From assembly GCA_030529135.1 (NCBI GenBank), contig JAUMXO010000001.1:15335-79334 (forward strand): a DNA stretch of 64,000 nucleotides, given 5' to 3'. The notes beneath the pieces were generated by a model. That model was not told the DNA's origin. It worked only from the letters and a program-made list of their open reading frames with translations, and searched no databases. This DNA is from Candidatus Saccharimonadota bacterium. Lineage in GTDB: Bacteria; Patescibacteriota; Saccharimonadia; Saccharimonadales; Saccharimonadaceae. A program made the position numbers and the translations under genes. This document shows, one piece after another, positions 4,706 to 19,410 of the stretch (positions are counted from its first letter, which is position 1; each line of letters begins with the position of its first letter).

Positions 4706-6976
4706 ATGTCTACAGCGAAACGAAGAAAAAATACAAAAAGAACTACCAAAAGTTCTAAAACTTCTCGCAAGACCAGCACCAGAAAAGCTGCCGAAAGGGA
4801 AGTGAACGCTGAGTACGAATTACCCGGTGGCTTTTGGCACCAACTGTTCGCAGTCTTTATGATTGCCCTGGCGCTTTTCTTCGTAATTACTTGGTTTGGT
4901 CACGGCGGTTCTTTCTTAAATACCGTTCACGAAACGCTTTTGAAGGGCCTCGGTCTCGCTACCTATTTTATTCCGATGCTCCTAGTTTACCTTGCAGTTA
5001 AAATTTTCCGTTCAGATACCAATCGTGTCGCTATCCCAGTTTATATTGCTGGAATTTTTATGCTATTTTGGCTTACGGGCGTCGGCGCGATTTGGAACAA
5101 CGGCGGCATCGTCGGCGATTGGCTAAATTCCATTATGCTAAAAGCCTTAGATCAAGGCTTTGTCATCGTCATTTACATACTTTTGATATTTATTACTCTT
5201 CTTTTTCTTTTGCAGCTTTCGCCACTCGCTTTCTTTAGAGGCGCTAAAAACATGGCTAAACCTGGCAAAAAAGCCACTCCAAAAGACGTTAATGAATCAG
5301 AGCCAAAGGGTCAACTAGAAATTAAAGTTAACTCCGGTATTTCTGAACCAGCTGCAGCTGCTGCACCAGTCAAAAGTGGCTTCTTGAAACGTAAATCTAA
5401 ATTTGTAGCCGAATCAAAACCAAAAGCTGCCGAATCAGAATCAGAAAAAACGCCTACCGCACTTGTAGCGGTCAATGACCCAGATTGGAAAATGCCATCC
5501 ACTGATCTTCTCACCAAAAAACAATCTCCGGCCGACGCTGGCAACATTCAACAAAATGCCATTATTATTAAAGATACTTTCTCAGAGTTTGGCATCGAAG
5601 TGGAAATGAAAGGCGCTAATGTTGGCCCACGCGTTACACAATATACTCTCAAAGCTCCAGGCGGTGTTAACCTCTCTAAGATTTCTGCACGCGATAAAGA
5701 GCTCGCCTATAAGCTATCCGCCAAGACCGTCCGGATTGAAGCTCCAATCCCAGGCACTCAGCTTATTGGCGTAGAAGTACCAAATATTCGTGCCGAAGGC
5801 GTCTCTCTTCGTGGTATCATCGAATCAGATGAATGGCGTCATGCCAAACATCCACTTACTTTCGCTGTAGGTAAGGATATTTCCGGTAAACCTGTCATAG
5901 CGGATCTTGCAGACATGCGTCACTTGCTTATTGCTGGTACTACCGGTTCTGGTAAATCTGTCATGACCAATACGCTTATTATGTCACTTCTTTACAGGAA
6001 TTCACCTTCTGATATGCGTCTTATCATCGTAGACCCAAAGCGCGTAGAAATGGCCGTTTACAAAGACATCCCTCACCTTCTTACGCCAATTATCAATGAC
6101 ACTTCCAAAGCTCTTTCGGCTATGAAATGGGCTGCTGGCGAAATGGATCGTCGCTATACTATCATGGAGGAGGCCGGCGTTAAAAACATCGTCGATTACA
6201 ACGAAGTCATGGAAGAAAAATCCAAATCCGCCTCCAAAGATTCCAAAGAAGAAGAAAACACTACCGAAAAAATGCCTTATATTGTGATAGTAATAGACGA
6301 AATGTCCGACCTTATGATGCAGGCCTCAAAAGAGCTTGAGCCTTTAATTGTTCGTATTGCTCAGCTTGGGCGCGCCGCTGGCATGCATTTAGTACTAGCT
6401 ACCCAGAAGCCAGTAGTAAAGGTCATTACAGGCCTTATTAAAGGCAATATTCCGTCTCGTATCGCTTTCCGAGTCCTAAGCTCAATGGATTCTCGCATCA
6501 TCCTCGATTCTTCTGGGGCTGAAAAGCTTCTAGGCCAAGGTGATATGTTATTGTCTTCTGAGCAAACTTCCAATGGCCCAGAACGCATCCAGGGCGCTTG
6601 GACTCCAGATGGCGACATTAAAAAAGTTACCGATTTCCTTCGCTCTCAGCGTCCACCTCAGTATAACGACGAAGTCATTGCCCAGCAAGTTGCCCTCAAA
6701 GGTGCTGGCGGCGGTCTTAGCGATATGGATGGCCTCGGTCGTAAATTCGACCCTCAAGATCCGCTAGTTCGAAAAGCCATTGAGATTTGTCTGAAAAATG
6801 GTAAATTCTCTACCTCGCTTCTTCAAACTTACCTCAGTAAATCCCATGGCTACGTATCTGGTCTTGGTGTCTGGCTCGAAGAGCTTGGTGTGATTGGCCC
6901 AGTCAACGGCACCAAACCTCGTGAGCTCCTCATCACCTCAATGGAAGAGTTTGACGAATTAGCTAGTTCTAGTTAG
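4706..6976 (+). CDS. ftsK: DNA translocase FtsK/SpoIIIE
   Basis: N-terminal TM helices, Walker A AGTTGSGKS, IVIDEMSDLM, GRAAGMHLVLATQKP, C-terminal gamma domain; start set at ATG 4706. Confidence 0.95.
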   Translation: MSTAKRRKNTKRTTKSSKTSRKTSTRKAAEREVNAEYELPGGFWHQLFAVFMIALALFFVITWFGHGGSFLNTVHETLLKGLGLATYFIPMLLVYLAVKIFRSDTNRVAIPVYIAGIFMLFWLTGVGAIWNNGGIVGDWLNSIMLKALDQGFVIVIYILLIFITLLFLLQLSPLAFFRGAKNMAKPGKKATPKDVNESEPKGQLEIKVNSGISEPAAAAAPVKSGFLKRKSKFVAESKPKAAESESEKTPTALVAVNDPDWKMPSTDLLTKKQSPADAGNIQQNAIIIKDTFSEFGIEVEMKGANVGPRVTQYTLKAPGGVNLSKISARDKELAYKLSAKTVRIEAPIPGTQLIGVEVPNIRAEGVSLRGIIESDEWRHAKHPLTFAVGKDISGKPVIADLADMRHLLIAGTTGSGKSVMTNTLIMSLLYRNSPSDMRLIIVDPKRVEMAVYKDIPHLLTPIINDTSKALSAMKWAAGEMDRRYTIMEEAGVKNIVDYNEVMEEKSKSASKDSKEEENTTEKMPYIVIVIDEMSDLMMQASKELEPLIVRIAQLGRAAGMHLVLATQKPVVKVITGLIKGNIPSRIAFRVLSSMDSRIILDSSGAEKLLGQGDMLLSSEQTSNGPERIQGAWTPDGDIKKVTDFLRSQRPPQYNDEVIAQQVALKGAGGGLSDMDGLGRKFDPQDPLVRKAIEICLKNGKFSTSLLQTYLSKSHGYVSGLGVWLEELGVIGPVNGTKPRELLITSMEEFDELASSS

Positions 6977-9548: not shown

Positions 9549-10508
9549 ATGTCTCGCCTTATCTTAGTTTATAACCCCAACTCTTCTAATTATTGTCGTG
9601 TCAAAAAAAATATTTTAGATCAAAAAACCAAATTGTTTGCTGAAAAAAATCTTACCGATTATACCATCAAAAAAATTGGTTTTGAAAATAACGTTAAAAA
9701 CCTTCAAAAAGAACTCAAAAACGGCGACATTTGTCTTTCTCTCGGTGGCGATGCCACCGCTGCTATTACTGCCAATGCCATCATGAGTTCCCAAAAAGAC
9801 GTCACTCTTGCTGTTCTCCCATATGGCAACTTCAATGACCTCGCTAGAACTTTGGGAACGATGAAGCTGGAGGATTTAAACGTTCACAAGCGGACCTCCG
9901 CGACCAACAGGGAGGGTACCGCGAGTAAACCGTTTAAGTCCGCTAGCCGTTTGTACCCTCTCGAGATTTATGTAGACGGCAAATTTTGGCGTTATGCTAC
10001 TTGTTACGTAACCATTGGTATGACCGCCGAAGCAGTTGAACTTTTTGATGAACCAAAATTTAGAAAATATATGCAAAAGGGCCACAAAAGTTCCTGGCGC
10101 TCTTATCTAGAGTTGGCCAAATGGTATTTCAAAAACCGTCGGAAGAAAGTGTTTCTTCCTGAGTTCACTATCAACAAAAATTCCACAGTCAAGAAAGCCT
10201 CTGATTATGCTGCTCTTAGTGGCAAATCCATGTGCCGTGTCATGAAGGGTGGCGACGATTGGAAAAAGCCCTATATTTTTAGGAGTGCTGCCCTAAAAAC
10301 TATCAGCTTCCCAAGACTATTTATCTTGATGGCAAAATCAATCTTGCATCGTACTCCCGGCAGCGATACGAAAGGCGATCTTCTAGAATTCAAGGAACCA
10401 GCTACCGTCGAACTTCAAGCCGAAGGCGAATATCAAACTTTTAAAAATATCAAAAAGATCAAGGTTAAGAAAGGGAATCAATGTTTGAAAGTGATAACAA
10501 AAAACTAG
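9549..10508 (+). CDS. diacylglycerol kinase family protein
   Basis: YNPNSS, LSLGGDAT, LPYGNFNDLARTLG, QAEGE motifs; carries short palindromic insert. Confidence 0.8.
   Translation: MSRLILVYNPNSSNYCRVKKNILDQKTKLFAEKNLTDYTIKKIGFENNVKNLQKELKNGDICLSLGGDATAAITANAIMSSQKDVTLAVLPYGNFNDLARTLGTMKLEDLNVHKRTSATNREGTASKPFKSASRLYPLEIYVDGKFWRYATCYVTIGMTAEAVELFDEPKFRKYMQKGHKSSWRSYLELAKWYFKNRRKKVFLPEFTINKNSTVKKASDYAALSGKSMCRVMKGGDDWKKPYIFRSAALKTISFPRLFILMAKSILHRTPGSDTKGDLLEFKEPATVELQAEGEYQTFKNIKKIKVKKGNQCLKVITKN
9872..9941 (+). repeat. short palindromic element in-frame in DAGK gene
   Basis: Imperfect arms GGATTTAAACG / CGTTTAAGTCC; inner CCTCC/GGAGG hairpin with GCGACCAACAG loop resembling GCGACRACGGGAG of other copies. 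Confidence 0.55.
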
Positions 10509-11284
10509 AACAGGTCATAACATACATGAAAACTCACTGGCCAAGTCCAGTAAAAGACGAGTGGCAAGTCAGTTTAGAAGAATACCCCAAAATTCTAAAA
10601 CAAATTGTCGCGGATTTTACTAAAGATAAGACTAAGAATAAAAATCTTATTCGCATTGCTGGTCTTTCTGGTTCCGGTAAAACTTCCCAAATTCTCCCCG
10701 CTGTAGAAAAATATTGCGAGATGAAAAATTTAAATCCAGTTCTCATCGCTGCTCGTCGTTTCGTAGATTATCATCCGTTCAGAAATGAAATTGAAATAGA
10801 ATACGGTGAAGAAAATTTACGTAAAAACACCGATGAATTTAGTACTATCATGATGTTTTTGAGTTTAAATGCTCTTACTAAAGCTGGTTATGATATTATT
10901 TTAGACGTTACATTACTAGATCCAGAGGTAGAAAATATCTTACTTGGAATGTTAAGAGAGAATAATTATCAAACTATGCTTCTAATGATCGCTACCAGCC
11001 CTACTGTTACTGAACATTTTTTGGGCGGTCGTGGTTGGCGTCATTCTAAGGCGACTGAAGCGGAATTTATTCGTGCCACTAGGGCAGCAATGGAATTCTA
11101 TGCCCAAAACTATCCAGATCTTCACACGATTCTTTGGAGCGTGTATGATCTAGATCCGATTTATAACGGAAAAATCAAGAACGCATTAGATATTTTTCAA
11201 GAATATTCAGAGAAAACCGATCTTCCTAAGTCAAACGATGACGAAAGAAGGGAAGCTAAAATTCAATTTCTTTCAAAACTTTAG
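10481..11284 (+). CDS. zeta-toxin-like P-loop kinase
   Basis: Walker A GLSGSGKT, FVDYHP, YDIILDVTL. Confidence 0.65.
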   Translation: MFESDNKKLEQVITYMKTHWPSPVKDEWQVSLEEYPKILKQIVADFTKDKTKNKNLIRIAGLSGSGKTSQILPAVEKYCEMKNLNPVLIAARRFVDYHPFRNEIEIEYGEENLRKNTDEFSTIMMFLSLNALTKAGYDIILDVTLLDPEVENILLGMLRENNYQTMLLMIATSPTVTEHFLGGRGWRHSKATEAEFIRATRAAMEFYAQNYPDLHTILWSVYDLDPIYNGKIKNALDIFQEYSEKTDLPKSNDDERREAKIQFLSKL

Positions 11285-12866: not shown

Positions 12867-13859
12867 ATGCCAAAAAACATCACCGACAAAATTTACACCA
12901 TCCGTGGGCAGAAAGTGATACTGGACTACGATTTAGCGGAGCTCTATGGTTACGAGACAAAAGCATTCAATCGTCAAGTCCAAAGGAATATAGAAAAATT
13001 TAAAGGCGAAGAGTTTATGTTCCAGCTAACAAAACTGGAAGCGGAGCAATTTTCAAGGTCAAAAAATTTGACCTCAAATTCGGAAACCGGAATCTTGAGG
13101 TGCCAAAATGTCACCTCAAGTTGGGGCGGCGCTAGGTACCTCCCCCACGCCTTCACCGAACAGGGTATTTATATGCTCATGACCGTTTTAAAAGGTGAGC
13201 TCGCCACCAAACAAAGCCGCGCCCTTGTTATGACTTTCAAGGCCATGAAAGACTACATCATCAGCCACCAGTCTGTAGTTTCAAAAGTCATAGACAACTC
13301 CAAAGACATCGCCAAGATCAAAACCGAAATCAATCAAATCGCCAGCGAAATGACCGGCGTAGTTAAAAAATCTGAAATTTCTCCTATTCTTCTAGATTTT
13401 GCCAAAGTCGCCGAAACCAAAGAGTTTTTAATTTTAAATGGTGAACCAATGAGAGCCAAAGAAACCTACCAAGATATTCTTAGTAAGGCCGAAAAGCGAA
13501 TTTATATCATAGACAATTATATCAGCATCAAAACTCTCCGCCTTCTCCAGGCCGCTAGGCCAAACATAGAAGTGATATTTTTTAGCGACAATGTCGGGAG
13601 TTGTCTCTACGGCAGCGACGTCAAAGATTTTAAAAAAGATCGAAAAGATCTCAAGATCAAATTCATCCGAACTAACAATGCGGTTCACGACAGATTTATC
13701 ATCATCGATGGTGAAAAGTTCTACCATTGTGGCGCCTCGTCAAAAGACGCAGGGAAGAGAATCGCCATCCTCCACGAAATCACCGACAAACAAATTGTCA
13801 AAATCATCAAAGGTATTGTTATTAAAATGGCAAACAACAGAGAACTGATTTTAAAGTAG
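12867..13859 (+). CDS. ORF6N-domain DNA-binding protein with C-terminal PLD-like region
   Basis: IYTIRGQKVILDYDLAELYGYETKAFNRQVQRN, RYLPHAFTEQG; HDRFIIID. Confidence 0.85.
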   Translation: MPKNITDKIYTIRGQKVILDYDLAELYGYETKAFNRQVQRNIEKFKGEEFMFQLTKLEAEQFSRSKNLTSNSETGILRCQNVTSSWGGARYLPHAFTEQGIYMLMTVLKGELATKQSRALVMTFKAMKDYIISHQSVVSKVIDNSKDIAKIKTEINQIASEMTGVVKKSEISPILLDFAKVAETKEFLILNGEPMRAKETYQDILSKAEKRIYIIDNYISIKTLRLLQAARPNIEVIFFSDNVGSCLYGSDVKDFKKDRKDLKIKFIRTNNAVHDRFIIIDGEKFYHCGASSKDAGKRIAILHEITDKQIVKIIKGIVIKMANNRELILK

Positions 13860-13884
13860 CCCTATCTGTGGTATAATTATAGTT

Positions 13885-14077
13885 GTCCAAACTATAATTT
13901 AACGCAACAGAAAACAGCAGAATATATCTGTTGTCTATAGTGCTTAGAATCGGGCGCTGTAGGCAATAGGCACTATGTTCTGTTGTATAAGTAGTTTGGA
14001 CGCTATCTACAGCGTCCGATTTTGGTTTTGTAGTATGCGTCCATTTTGCACCTTTCTGTTGCGAGAAAGCAACAGAA
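13885..14077 (+). promoter_or_regulatory. highly structured leader upstream of methyltransferase (candidate cis-regulatory RNA)
   Basis: Nested and mutually exclusive helices; 9-bp hairpin ending 1 nt before ATG 14079. Confidence 0.55.
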
Positions 14078-14078
14078 C

Positions 14079-15182
14079 ATGGGAAGCAATGCGAATTTGC
14101 ATAAAGCCAACAAAGCCAAAAAAGATGAGTTCTATACTCAACTCCCCGATATAGAAAACGAACTCAAACATTATAAGGAACATTTTAAGGGTAAAACTGT
14201 ATTTTGTAATTGTGACGATCCATATGAAAGCAATTTCTTTAAATATTTTGCAATGAATTTTAACCATCTAGGTTTGAAAAAATTAATTTGCACAAGCTAT
14301 TCTGGCTCTCCAATTGTTGGCCAAGAATTTAGCGATTTGCCACTGTTTAAAAGTCTAAATTCCAAAAAAGCCTACAAAGTAGAAATCACAGAAGTTTATG
14401 ACGAGAATAAAGACGGTGCAGTGGATATGTATGATATCGAGCTTCTAATTAAAAACATGAAAAACAAAATGACACTCCTAAAAGGTGACGGTGATTTTAG
14501 AAGCAAAGAAGCTATAGAATGTCTAAGGGAGGCCGATATTGTAGTAACTAACCCACCATTTTCACTATTTCGTGAATATCTTGCTCAACTCATAGAGTAT
14601 AAAAAACTCTTTCTTATAATTGGAAATATGAATGCAATAACCTACAAAGAGGTTTTTCCACTTATAAAAGATAATAAAATTTGGCTTGGCTATGGGTTTA
14701 AGGGAGGGAACGCATTTTTTTCTATTCCAGTTTATAGCAACGAGTATGCTAAAGGTGTGTACAATGAAGAAACAGGGCTAGTCAAATTTAGAAATTGCAC
14801 TTGGTACACTAACATTGACCATAATAAAAGACACGAAGAACTTATTTTGTATAAAAAATATTCCCCAGAAGAATACCCAAAATATGATAATTATGACGCT
14901 ATCAACGTAGATAAGGTTAATGAGATACCGGATGATTACAATGGTGTTATGGGGGTGCCAATCACCTTTCTCGACAAATACAATCCGGATCAATTTGAAA
15001 TAGTTGCCTTTAGGAAGGGCGAAGATGGCCGAGACTTAGTATTTACGAGAGAGAGAGAGGATTCAACCATACTTTCGTATCCTTGTACGACGTCGATTCC
15101 AGGGATGATAAAAAATGCAGAAGGGAAAATCAATGGAAAAATTACATACGCCAGAATAACCATCATGAAAAAGAGCCGATAG
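14079..15182 (+). CDS. adenine-specific DNA methyltransferase, EcoRI family
   Basis: KKDEFYTQL, FCNCDDP, GDGDFRS, VVTNPPFSLFREY, GVPITFLDKYNPDQFEI. Confidence 0.9.
   Translation: MGSNANLHKANKAKKDEFYTQLPDIENELKHYKEHFKGKTVFCNCDDPYESNFFKYFAMNFNHLGLKKLICTSYSGSPIVGQEFSDLPLFKSLNSKKAYKVEITEVYDENKDGAVDMYDIELLIKNMKNKMTLLKGDGDFRSKEAIECLREADIVVTNPPFSLFREYLAQLIEYKKLFLIIGNMNAITYKEVFPLIKDNKIWLGYGFKGGNAFFSIPVYSNEYAKGVYNEETGLVKFRNCTWYTNIDHNKRHEELILYKKYSPEEYPKYDNYDAINVDKVNEIPDDYNGVMGVPITFLDKYNPDQFEIVAFRKGEDGRDLVFTREREDSTILSYPCTTSIPGMIKNAEGKINGKITYARITIMKKSR
15047..15059 (+). repeat. (GA)6G simple sequence repeat in methyltransferase 3' end
   Basis: ACGAGAGAGAGAGAGG at 15045-15060. Confidence 0.9.
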
Positions 15183-15290
15183 ATTTTTTCTTCCCATATT
15201 CTACAAATTTAAAAAACGGTTTAGTGAATGATTGTAGAATAAACGGTAAAAAAACATACGTGAGGATATTAATTAAACGAAAGGAATCAA

Positions 15291-16382
15291 ATGAAAATTG
15301 AACTCAAAAACTTTAAAATTAAAGATATCTTCGAGGGCTATGAGGATAAAAACGAAGAAGGCATAACTGCATATAATGGCAAATTGGATATCCGCCCAAA
15401 ATATCAACGTGAGTTTGTCTATGATGACAAGAAGCGTAGCGCCGTTATTGATACTATCAAAAAAGACTTTCCACTCAATGTAATGTACTGGAATAAAAGA
15501 GATGACGGTGGCTACGAAATTCTAGATGGCCAGCAGCGCACTATCTCTTTCTGCCAATATCTAAATGGTGATTTTTCTTTTGAAGGCAAATATGCACATA
15601 ATCTCACGAAAGATGAATTAGAAAAAATCGAAAATTATGAATTGTTTATTTATATTTGCGAAGGCGAGGAAAGTGAACGTCTTGAGTGGTTTAGAACCAT
15701 TAATATTGCCGGCGAAAAGTTAACCGATCAAGAACTAAGAAATGCTACCTACACCAGCCCTTGGCTTACTGATGCTAAGAGATATTTTAGCAAATCTAAT
15801 TGTCCAGCTTACGGTCTTGCCGACAAATATATGAACGGTTCGCCAATCCGTCAAGACTATTTAGAAACCGTCCTAAGGTGGATTTCGGATGGCAAAATCG
15901 AAGAATACATGGCCGAGCATGCCAACGATAAAAAATACGACAATGCTTCCGAACTCTGGCAATATTTCCAAACCGCAATCGCTTGGGTGCAAACCATTTT
16001 CCCAGAGTATCGCAAAGAAATGAAAGGTTTAGAATGGGGCGAATTTTACAACAAATACCACAACAATTCCTACAACGCCACAGACCTAGAAAATAAAATC
16101 AAACAACTTATGCAAGATGAAGACGTCACTAGCAAAAAAGGAATTTACGAATACCTATTAAACGGCGACGAAAGAAATCTTAGCATCCGTGCCTTCACCG
16201 ACAACATGAAAAGAGAAGCATACGAGCGCCAAAACGGCATCTGTGCCAAGTGCGGCGAACGCTTTGAAATCACCGAAATGGAAGCCGATCATATCACTCC
16301 GTGGAGCCAAGGCGGAAAAACCATCACCGAAAACTGCCAGATGCTTTGCCGCGATTGCAATCGCAAGAAGTCCGACGTCTAA
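15291..16382 (+). CDS. DUF262 (GmrSD N-terminal-like) plus C-terminal HNH endonuclease
   Basis: RPKYQREFVY, LDGQQR, FRTIN; CAKC...EADHITPWSQGGKT...NCQMLCRDCN. Confidence 0.88.
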   Translation: MKIELKNFKIKDIFEGYEDKNEEGITAYNGKLDIRPKYQREFVYDDKKRSAVIDTIKKDFPLNVMYWNKRDDGGYEILDGQQRTISFCQYLNGDFSFEGKYAHNLTKDELEKIENYELFIYICEGEESERLEWFRTINIAGEKLTDQELRNATYTSPWLTDAKRYFSKSNCPAYGLADKYMNGSPIRQDYLETVLRWISDGKIEEYMAEHANDKKYDNASELWQYFQTAIAWVQTIFPEYRKEMKGLEWGEFYNKYHNNSYNATDLENKIKQLMQDEDVTSKKGIYEYLLNGDERNLSIRAFTDNMKREAYERQNGICAKCGERFEITEMEADHITPWSQGGKTITENCQMLCRDCNRKKSDV

Positions 16383-18972: not shown

Positions 18973-19410
18973 ATGAAGAAAATTATTTACAAAAATCCGA
19001 ATGACGCTGAAAATTTCAGCCTTGCACGTTTTACTAAATCTTTAAACAAATATGCTAAAATCTCCGAGAAAGAAATCAAAGACGCCCTAAAAGATTTTAA
19101 TCAATATGAAACTATGCATGTTTCTTGTCTTATAGAGATCGGCATCAAACTTATTGAAAAGCACGCGGATGAAAAAACTGCTGCTGAGTATTTTAATGCT
19201 CACGCTGAATATTTTGACGAAGGCAAATTTGAACGCCTCCGCCGCATCACCGGTTATTTAGTAGGTACTTTGGATCGCTGGAATGATGCTAAAAAAGCCG
19301 AAGAGGCCGCTCGTGTCAAGCATTCGGTTAATTCCGCCATCGACGACGCTGAGCGTCTTGCTGCCCTTGAAACTCAAGCTATGGCGCAAAACATCGCTTA
19401 CGCAAGATAA
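18973..19410 (+). CDS. small stand-alone NrdD C-terminal-like (glycyl-radical motif) protein
   Basis: FERLRRITGYLVGTLDRWNDAKKAEEAARVKH; start ATG 18973 with AGGG RBS. Confidence 0.75.
   Translation: MKKIIYKNPNDAENFSLARFTKSLNKYAKISEKEIKDALKDFNQYETMHVSCLIEIGIKLIEKHADEKTAAEYFNAHAEYFDEGKFERLRRITGYLVGTLDRWNDAKKAEEAARVKHSVNSAIDDAERLAALETQAMAQNIAYAR

Follow-up and report, generated by a model that had tools for sequence, protein, structure and literature searches.

How can a restriction-modification (R-M) operon tolerate a hypermutable repeat inside its protective methylase without the death of the cell? In a classical Type II pair, changing or silencing the methylase should be lethal. The question is raised by a locus in a 64,000-nucleotide (nt) stretch of the genome of a Candidatus Saccharimonadota bacterium (contig JAUMXO010000001.1, positions 15,335 to 79,334; this whole stretch is called the window here), where a methyltransferase gene followed by a nuclease gene carries six GA units close to its 3' end. 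A preliminary description of the window had claimed that all three reading frames behind this tract end in a methyltransferase-type YxRI motif, and had proposed a switch that changes the end of the enzyme instead of turning the gene off. Having retranslated the gene, scored its possible ends and compared it with relatives and public sequencing runs, we consider an all-ON, three-state slippage switch of the C-terminal cassette the best explanation of this locus, and a likely one. The features on which the argument depends are the following, with lengths in nt or amino acids (aa).

14079 to 15182, forward strand: EcoRI-family N6-adenine DNA methyltransferase gene as sequenced (state A, 367 aa; PF13651, PADLOC MTase_II).
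14952 to 15002, forward strand: conserved anchor GVPITFLDKYNPDQFEI, where strong conservation stops ahead of the variable end; its alignment columns are (nearly) invariant, and its pattern is found in 74 of 81 loci.
15003 to 15047, forward strand: segment common to all three states, translated as VAFRKGEDGRDLVFT; the counterpart in M.EcoRI is KFRKGVDEKDLSI.
15047 to 15059, forward strand: simple sequence repeat (GA)6+G, with the next unit interrupted.
15061 to 15108, forward strand: module beta, IQPYFRILVRRRFQG and stop, in frame +1, read with one more GA; a short M.EcoRI-like end.
15060 to 15182, forward strand: state A tail, with core module alpha, IPGMIKNAEGKINGKITYARITIMKK, at 15096-15173 and the stop TAG at 15180-15182.
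15059 to 15193, forward strand: state C read-through linker GFNHTFVSLYDVDSRDDKKCRRENQWKNYIRQNNHHEKEPIDFFF, in frame -1, in which modules beta and alpha are read out of frame.
15194 to 15301, forward strand: module zeta, PYSTNLKNGLVNDCRINGKKTYVRILIKRKESNEN and stop, in frame -1, read with one fewer GA; its stop TGA at 15299-15301 overlaps the nuclease start.
15291 to 16382, forward strand: operon partner, a DUF262 (GmrSD_N) + HNH nuclease (Pfam; PADLOC REase_II PDLC03418 over the full length, E=1.1e-137).

The open reading frame (ORF) that contains the repeat starts with the ATG at 14079, stops with the TAG at 15180-15182 and encodes 367 aa. The repeat itself, GAGAGAGAGAGAG, is (GA)6+G at 15047-15059, with (GA)6 proper at 15047-15058, codon 323 of 367, and is the sole dinucleotide repeat of at least six units in the window. 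We rebuilt the gene in silico with 3 to 9 GA units and translated each version. With six units (also 3 and 9) the protein has 367 aa and ends in EDSTILSYPCTTSIPGMIKNAEGKINGKITYARITIMKKSR (...IPGMIKNAEGKINGKITYARITIMKKSR) at the stop 15180-15182; with seven (also 4) it has 343 aa (state B) and ends in RERERIQPYFRILVRRRFQG at the stop 15106-15108; with five (also 8) it has 406 aa (state C) and ends in NGLVNDCRINGKKTYVRILIKRKESNEN at the stop 15299-15301. The 406-aa form traverses 45 out-of-frame codons before its end module, a read-through also present in the deposited proteins P0038 and P0137. Each frame closes in a family-type Y-x-R-I-x-I strand, and the three ends, YARITI, YFRILV and YVRILI, are comparable to the YFRILI of M.EcoRI. 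Retranslation and the simulated tracts thus bear out, in every detail, the description of (GA)6 with three family-type ends, one per frame. The same description had cited a PYFRILI end for M.EcoRI; read from an E. coli plasmid, that enzyme does end so (...DLSINGKCPYFRILIKNKRLQK, or ...KFRKGVDEKDLSINGKCPYFRILIKNKRLQK).

Against the Pfam model PF13651, the 367-aa form aligns from model position 1 to 345 of 345 (E=1.8e-145, 485 bits, cut-off 26.4), and the 406-aa form likewise covers 1-345, that is, to the last model position. The protein carries the catalytic motif NPPF (...VVTNPPFS..., with TNPPFS at residues 157-162), and its predicted identity is that of an EcoRI-family (PF13651) adenine methyltransferase. 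It shares with M.EcoRI about 52% identity over residues 16-320, the final PYFRILI and a hairpin, KFRKGxDxKDL...NGKxPYFRILI, equivalent to module beta; M.EcoRI differs in that its single end has no repeat and its partner is R.EcoRI, whereas here the partner is a DUF262-HNH nuclease. A sequence search of the PDB returned no solved relative, and a Foldseek search of the PDB gave generic Rossmann or methylase matches only (E >0.008). AlphaFold2 models reach a predicted local distance difference test score (pLDDT) of 72 for the window protein and 64 for a short-form homologue, with the last residues modelled as a strand in both.

Are the two extra ends more than chance? To score them we used a position matrix made from the ends of 62 distinct single-module relatives, with 128 off-frame readings as controls. 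True ends score at least 20, and the best of the 128 control frames reaches -6.2. The window frames score 28.7 (alpha), -2.2 (beta) and 44.2 (zeta), so that zeta is the highest of the three and stands above most true ends. In both off-frames no stop interrupts the reading between the tract and a family-type end. That the three ends are homologous modules of the family, as had been claimed, is upheld by the matrix, by Pfam and by the family comparison.

The preliminary description had suggested looking at the 3' ends of EcoRI-family methyltransferase genes for repeats with staggered modules, and we did so in three surveys. The first took one genome per GTDB species and yielded 80 loci from many phyla, mostly rumen and gut metagenome-assembled genomes; 74 loci, the window included, have a locatable anchor GVPITFLDKYNPxQFEI. 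One module is found in 67 of these, two in none, and three modules in three frames in five (the window, L001, L009, L011 and L033); a GA/AG or poly-G tract follows the anchor in these five and in no others. The second survey searched metagenomes, with the most conserved module, IPGMIKNAEGKINGKITYARITI, as its seed, and gave 80 more loci (L081-L160), all chosen for carrying module alpha; the third covered viral contigs and gave eight. All loci taken together, 147 could be analysed. Of these, 72 lack a repeat and never show more than one end: 70 have a single end and 2 have no end. The other 75 bear a repeat, and of them 60 have three ends, 13 have two and 2 have one. Because repeat-free loci never have more than one end and repeat-bearing loci mostly have three, we take the three-frame modules with a repeat not to be a product of chance. 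A frameshift that turns the enzyme OFF is not what we find: all three window frames give a family-type enzyme, and so do those of 60 of the 75 repeat-bearing loci. Among the three-ended loci as assembled, 13 have the first module in frame, 25 the second and 22 the third, and the modules are intact irrespective of the frame assembled.

Around the repeat, the relatives vary in a patterned way. At the same protein position 57 loci have a GA/AG tract, 13 poly-G, 2 poly-C, 2 AC and 1 a pentanucleotide, and (CAGA)6 occurs in L029; so varied a chemistry at one position suggests that slippery tracts were recruited here several times, independently of one another. Across lineages and phyla we find about eight recurring module types, in differing combinations and orders. 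In most GA-type loci the module nearest to the tract is of the beta type, (R)VQPYFRILV, which is read in frame in L082, L091, L092, L094, L102, L104, L117 and L119. Two loci with about 75% DNA identity to the window methyltransferase region, L169 and L170, have the same three module types and the same overlap of a terminal NEN and stop with the nuclease start; a zeta-type module with this overlap is also found in L100. In both L169 and L170 the unit after (GA)6, which in the window is interrupted, reads GAG/GAA instead of GGA (seventh unit, an A-to-G change).

If each module is used, each should be constrained in the frame in which it is read. We computed nucleotide diversity per codon position over 30 distinct GA-type loci. 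Module alpha, in its own frame, gives 0.115 / 0.114 / 0.353 for the first, second and third positions, and the third module (zeta), in its own frame, gives 0.464 / 0.386 / 0.639, both with a third-position excess; the stretch where functionally overlapping frames lie is conserved at all codon positions. This pattern indicates purifying selection on each module in its own frame.

Where did the three-ended half of the gene come from? The nearest relatives of the window nuclease, 94% identical, are found in Saccharibacteria contigs L162-L166, which have the order ORF6N-methylase-nuclease and a single-ended, 338-aa methylase. When the methylase is compared with that of L162, residues 1-180 are about 88% identical, and from 181 on the identity per 30-column block is 30-70%. 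The drop at about residue 181 (breakpoint about 14619) indicates that the C-terminal half, with the repeat and the three modules, was brought in by recombination:

14619 to 15301, forward strand: C-terminal half of the methyltransferase, a mosaic (starting near residue 181 and taking in the repeat and all three modules), delimited by the identity drop against L162.

As the alignments read, cassettes have clearly been exchanged by recombination between lineages on an evolutionary time scale. This bears on an alternative raised in the preliminary description, recombination of silent cassettes; as in inverting hsdS loci, such recombination rather than slippage would select the end in use. The evolutionary exchange of cassettes gives that idea its one foothold, and to this extent it stood. 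As a switch within the window it fell, for there are no DNA repeats on which it could act: direct or inverted repeats between the modules amount to chance-level matches, and no recombinase gene lies next to the operon. We regard recombinational switching here as scarcely credible.

Slippage, on the other hand, predicts that the tract should vary in length where little else does, and among relatives it does. Tract lengths across relatives range from 9 to 34 nt. Four loci whose flanks are 100% identical over 600 + 330 nt have tracts of 17, 21, 27 and 29 nt (L104, L087, L120 and L119), and a second identical-flank set has 9 nt (L090) against 23 nt (L092), that is, only (GA)4 against (GA)11. We assign L087, L104, L119 and L120 to Bifidobacterium dentium from the NCBI names of identical proteins; Adlercreutzia sp. 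ZJ176 and Ruminococcus flavefaciens are further sequenced carriers. In Logan contigs of isolate-sized runs aligned on L119, B. dentium isolates have tracts of 15, 17, 19, 19, 19, 21, 23 and 29 nt and are otherwise identical over 350-700 nt; tracts of 15 or 21 nt correspond to state A, of 17, 23 or 29 nt to state B and of 19 nt to state C. With contigs and isolates combined, the lineage spans 15 to 29 nt or more. Two raw-read runs added by study, X45 and X46, do not contain the B. dentium locus. The tract is hypermutable between otherwise identical strains of these relatives, and the earlier proposal of slippage at the repeat is supported for them. Three runs (X26, X27 and X28) have alternative 31-33-nt contigs at the tract with unequal depth (for example, 7 and 8 beside flanks of 12-14, or 500 beside 49-60), which fits mixed tract lengths within one culture, with polymerase chain reaction stutter possible for the minor variants. 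For the window's own organism, the Logan contigs hold at most 0.39 of the sampled words and are fragmentary and of low depth; one ends exactly at the tract, which carries no evidential weight.

The B. dentium protein records show what such variation does to the product. Public entries have 477 aa (state A), 444/453 aa (state B) or 512-518 aa (state C), all annotated as intact, and the cluster of the partner nuclease is almost uniformly 386 aa. With three intact protein forms and a uniform nuclease, all three states coexist in nature with the same intact nuclease gene. One could also imagine slippage on the repeat by the ribosome or by RNA polymerase, with three proteins arising at once from one DNA state. 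Nothing in the present data speaks for this, although frameshift suppression at (AG)n, in a Type III mod gene studied in a heterologous host system, has been reported (bioRxiv 10.64898/2026.04.01.715767). GA repeats are not known to be classical transcriptional slippage sites. Moreover, DNA length variation is seen directly and suffices for the data, so we hold a mixture made at the RNA or protein level to be very improbable.

Two observations on the architecture of these relatives belong here. In some lineages there are much larger modules that repeat the whole GVPITFLDKYNPxQFEI subdomain (L087 1199-2632; L029 about 4990-5400; P0009, P0015, P0016, P0074 and P0087), and the B. dentium enzyme consists of a complete first C-terminal unit, a linker and a second unit with the repeat and three modules. 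Separately, a large serine recombinase gene in L087 (3908-5038, B. dentium) starts at the last base of the nuclease stop codon, which suggests that the B. dentium operon rides on a mobile element.

The window tract is short and interrupted, and this brings up a more modest account: the off-frame modules could be relics, left over from recombination or duplication, with (GA)6 merely encoding Arg-Glu and no switching in the window organism. The recombinant origin of the C-terminal half and the short, interrupted tract agree with this, and the L090 tract, (GA)4 between the same flanks as (GA)11, demonstrates that tracts can contract to short, more stable lengths. Against it, both off-frames are open to a family-type end, one of them (zeta) scoring above most true ends; the relatives with about 75% identity retain three intact modules; off-frame modules occur in none of the repeat-free loci; and each module is under selection in its own frame. 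We therefore judge the relic account improbable.

We now turn to the relation between the methylase ends and the nuclease. Methylase and nuclease genes are adjacent and in the same orientation, and the pair with its stop/start overlap is kept across phyla, as in a Type II R-M operon; under a strict motif, 63 of the 74 species-level loci have the nuclease downstream, and a relaxed motif adds further loci. In single-module loci the methylase stop mostly falls between -8 and +11 nt from the nuclease start, a 4-nt ATGA overlap being commonest. In three-module loci only the last module ends near the nuclease start (about -10 to +31 nt), and the others stop 42-235 nt upstream. The window follows this geometry, with stop-to-start distances of -182, -108 and +11 nt. 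The 406-aa form stops 8 nt past the nuclease ATG (15291), an 11-nt overlap, and no other state overlaps. The earlier statement that only the last variant overlaps the nuclease start was right, and the overlap (stop 15299-15301) is normal for the family. The tail ending in NEN and stop over ATGAAAATTGA is also found in the single-ended loci L002, L005 and L007, which places the third module, by this comparison, at the site of the ancestral end. Two loci depart from the arrangement: in L167 (2712-3044) and L168 (1707-2039) an extra ORF of 110 aa, without a Pfam match, lies between methylase and nuclease with a 4-nt overlap with the nuclease start, and the third module abuts this ORF rather than the nuclease (in L167 its stop is 2 nt before the ORF start).

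This geometry is the starting point of the main rival, according to which the three C-termini methylate alike and protect against slips, and the repeat serves to tune translation of the nuclease, up in the third frame and down in the others; restriction would then phase-vary while self-protection stayed constant. Such frame-proofing would account for a conserved geometry in which the last module alone is coupled, and for isolates in all three states with an identical, intact nuclease gene. It would also sit well with the finding that nucleases 85-98% identical pair with unrelated terminal cassettes (L002/L008, L013/L019, L022/L038), in that the cassette need not set a specificity matched to the nuclease. 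Yet a repeat in the nuclease gene would be a far simpler device, and it is found in just 1 of 92 nuclease genes; that some eight discrete types of module are conserved across phyla and reordered would be unexpected if any working end sufficed; and the window nuclease has an AAGGA Shine-Dalgarno-like site of its own 7-8 nt before its ATG. On balance we find frame-proofing rather unlikely.

The pairing of near-identical nucleases with unrelated cassettes also argues against a simple fixed Type II nuclease facing a methylase that changes specificity. We infer one of two things: the variants of the methylase all protect one set of sites, or the DUF262-HNH nuclease requires the methylase, much as Type III Res requires Mod. 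A related case is provided by a second repeat in a variable loop of the methylase N-terminal half, seen in L066 (G9), L112 (G11) and L150 ((GA)17), each with an intact adjacent nuclease. Behind these repeats the other two frames stop at once, which is the ordinary ON/OFF type, and L150 is frameshifted as assembled. Intact nuclease genes next to such ON/OFF-type methylases hint that the nuclease may be harmless without the methylase. Avoidance of possible target sites in the window was uninformative on the target: GAATTC occurs 18 times against 20.6 expected and AATT 557 times against 550, so that neither is avoided.

We return to the slippage switch and how it would operate. The enzyme would require its variable cassette to be followed by a closing Y-x-R-I-x-I strand with a basic tail. 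Beta, alpha and zeta, each a cassette with its strand, are arranged in tandem directly behind (GA)n, one per frame, and gain or loss of one GA at replication would send translation into the next frame. The product would have 343, 367 or 406 aa, with the first 322 residues in common and a different C-terminal cassette, and the state would be inherited and reversible. The three forms would presumably differ in function, most likely in DNA target preference or in interaction with the nuclease, since the same cassette is the part swapped by recombination. Translational coupling to the nuclease would probably change with the state as well, because the nuclease start codon is reached by the longest form alone. 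All this supposes that slippage still acts on the window's short, interrupted tract, as we think it does.

Several findings weigh against this switch. The 343-aa form reaches only position 305 of the 345 in PF13651, though it ends like M.EcoRI, and its module beta, at -2.2, lies below the range of true ends, yet above every control; the low score arises because the residues preceding the strand are encoded by the repeat. Both AlphaFold2 models fall below 50 pLDDT over the variable C-terminal region. The selection of L081-L160 for module alpha deprives these loci of information on prevalence. The 13 repeat-bearing loci with just two good frames imply that an OFF state is tolerated in some lineages. 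Finally, the window tract has only six perfect units and is interrupted; with a tract this short and a broken seventh unit, the window copy may switch rarely.

A bolder version of the switch, which we put forward tentatively and hold to be possible rather than likely, is that the cassettes are target-recognition cassettes stored in three frames, giving a clonal population three heritable, interconvertible methylation specificities, with the DUF262-HNH nuclease taking its target from the methylase instead of recognising DNA on its own, so that the specificity of restriction would shift as well. With the same reserve, such a gene might count as the frame-encoded equivalent of the Type I hsdS shufflon, and it might have spread horizontally through gut and rumen bacteria of many phyla, including the cultivable B. 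dentium.

How does this compare with systems already described? Repeat-driven phase variation of Type I and Type III systems, hsdS truncation by poly-G, C-terminal switching by 3' homopolymers and hsdS shufflons are all known. The phasevarions of Type III mod and Type I hsdM/hsdS (PMC5909438, PMC7383803) likewise use slippage of an intragenic repeat in a methyltransferase gene to produce heritable, reversible states; theirs are ON/OFF, with two of three frames truncating the protein, whereas here every frame has its own C-terminal module and the enzyme is a Type II-like EcoRI-family methylase with a separate nuclease. In the poly-G tract of the Type I hsdS of NgoAV (PMC9577141) and the 3' homopolymers of Helicobacter canadensis (PMC2823697), a late repeat also alters the C-terminus without abolishing the protein, but the outcomes are two (full or truncated) or the tails arbitrary, without three homologous, selected, staggered modules. 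Inverting hsdS loci (S. pneumoniae, PMC4948785; REBASE survey, PMC7394358) resemble the window in keeping alternative cassettes at one locus with one expressed; they rely on a recombinase and inverted repeats, while here the reading frame set by the repeat makes the selection and no repeats link the modules. The DCM8/DAM3 fusion methylase of Mycoplasma hominis, for which a claim to be the first Type II methylase with phase variation was made in 2023 (PMC10305163), is also Type II, with a dinucleotide repeat, (TA)n, in the recognition region and mixed lengths within strains; its frameshifts truncate the DAM3 part, presumably to an inactive form, and no alternative functional frames are described for it. 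In a partial literature search, which may have missed an earlier mention, we found no account of three functional ends staggered over frames behind a repeat, nor of one in the EcoRI family. The three-frame switchable end is apparently an undescribed design, shared by relatives in many gut bacteria.

Phase variation by slippage usually means ON/OFF, with two frames wasted; here all three would be filled with distinct ends, in a compact three-way switch. If the forms differ in target, then gut, rumen and oral bacteria could alter their epigenome and their barrier to phages and plasmids at high frequency from one gene. Genome annotation and metagenome binning would miss such a switch because each state resembles an ordinary intact gene. 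Sequenced B. dentium isolates exist in each of the three states, which makes the system directly testable.

The window operon is neighboured by genes for an ORF6N protein, an APH-like kinase and PolA. The ORF6N-domain gene (12867-13859), directly upstream, matches the PADLOC candidate PDC-S05 (E=1e-94), and a gene of this type precedes the methylase-nuclease pair in the related Saccharibacteria contigs L162-L166 as well (193-1269). Given this conserved place in relatives, it may belong to the same defence locus as the pair.

Between the ORF6N gene and the methylase start lies a densely self-complementary region of 220 nt (13857-14078). Its elements are an extended -10 promoter-like site (13850-13877), a hairpin that resembles a terminator and has a T-run (13996-14019) and a 9-bp hairpin (14054-14062 / 14069-14077) that ends 1 nt before the ATG, and an 11-nt perfect complement, 13975-13985 against 14070-14080, spans the methylase start codon. 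The leader is nearly identical in L162 and L164, where one stem C-G pair becomes a U-G wobble, a one-sided change that keeps the pair. A comparison with Rfam assigned it to no family and gave a single sub-threshold chance match. It may be a regulatory leader of the operon.

Farther away, a zeta-toxin-family kinase gene (PF06414) is located at 10481-11284, 3.6 kb upstream of the R-M operon. Downstream, a small ORF of 145 aa (18973-19410) matches only the last ~30 positions of the profile of the anaerobic ribonucleotide reductase NrdD, its glycyl-radical end, and could encode a stand-alone glycyl-radical 'spare part' protein.

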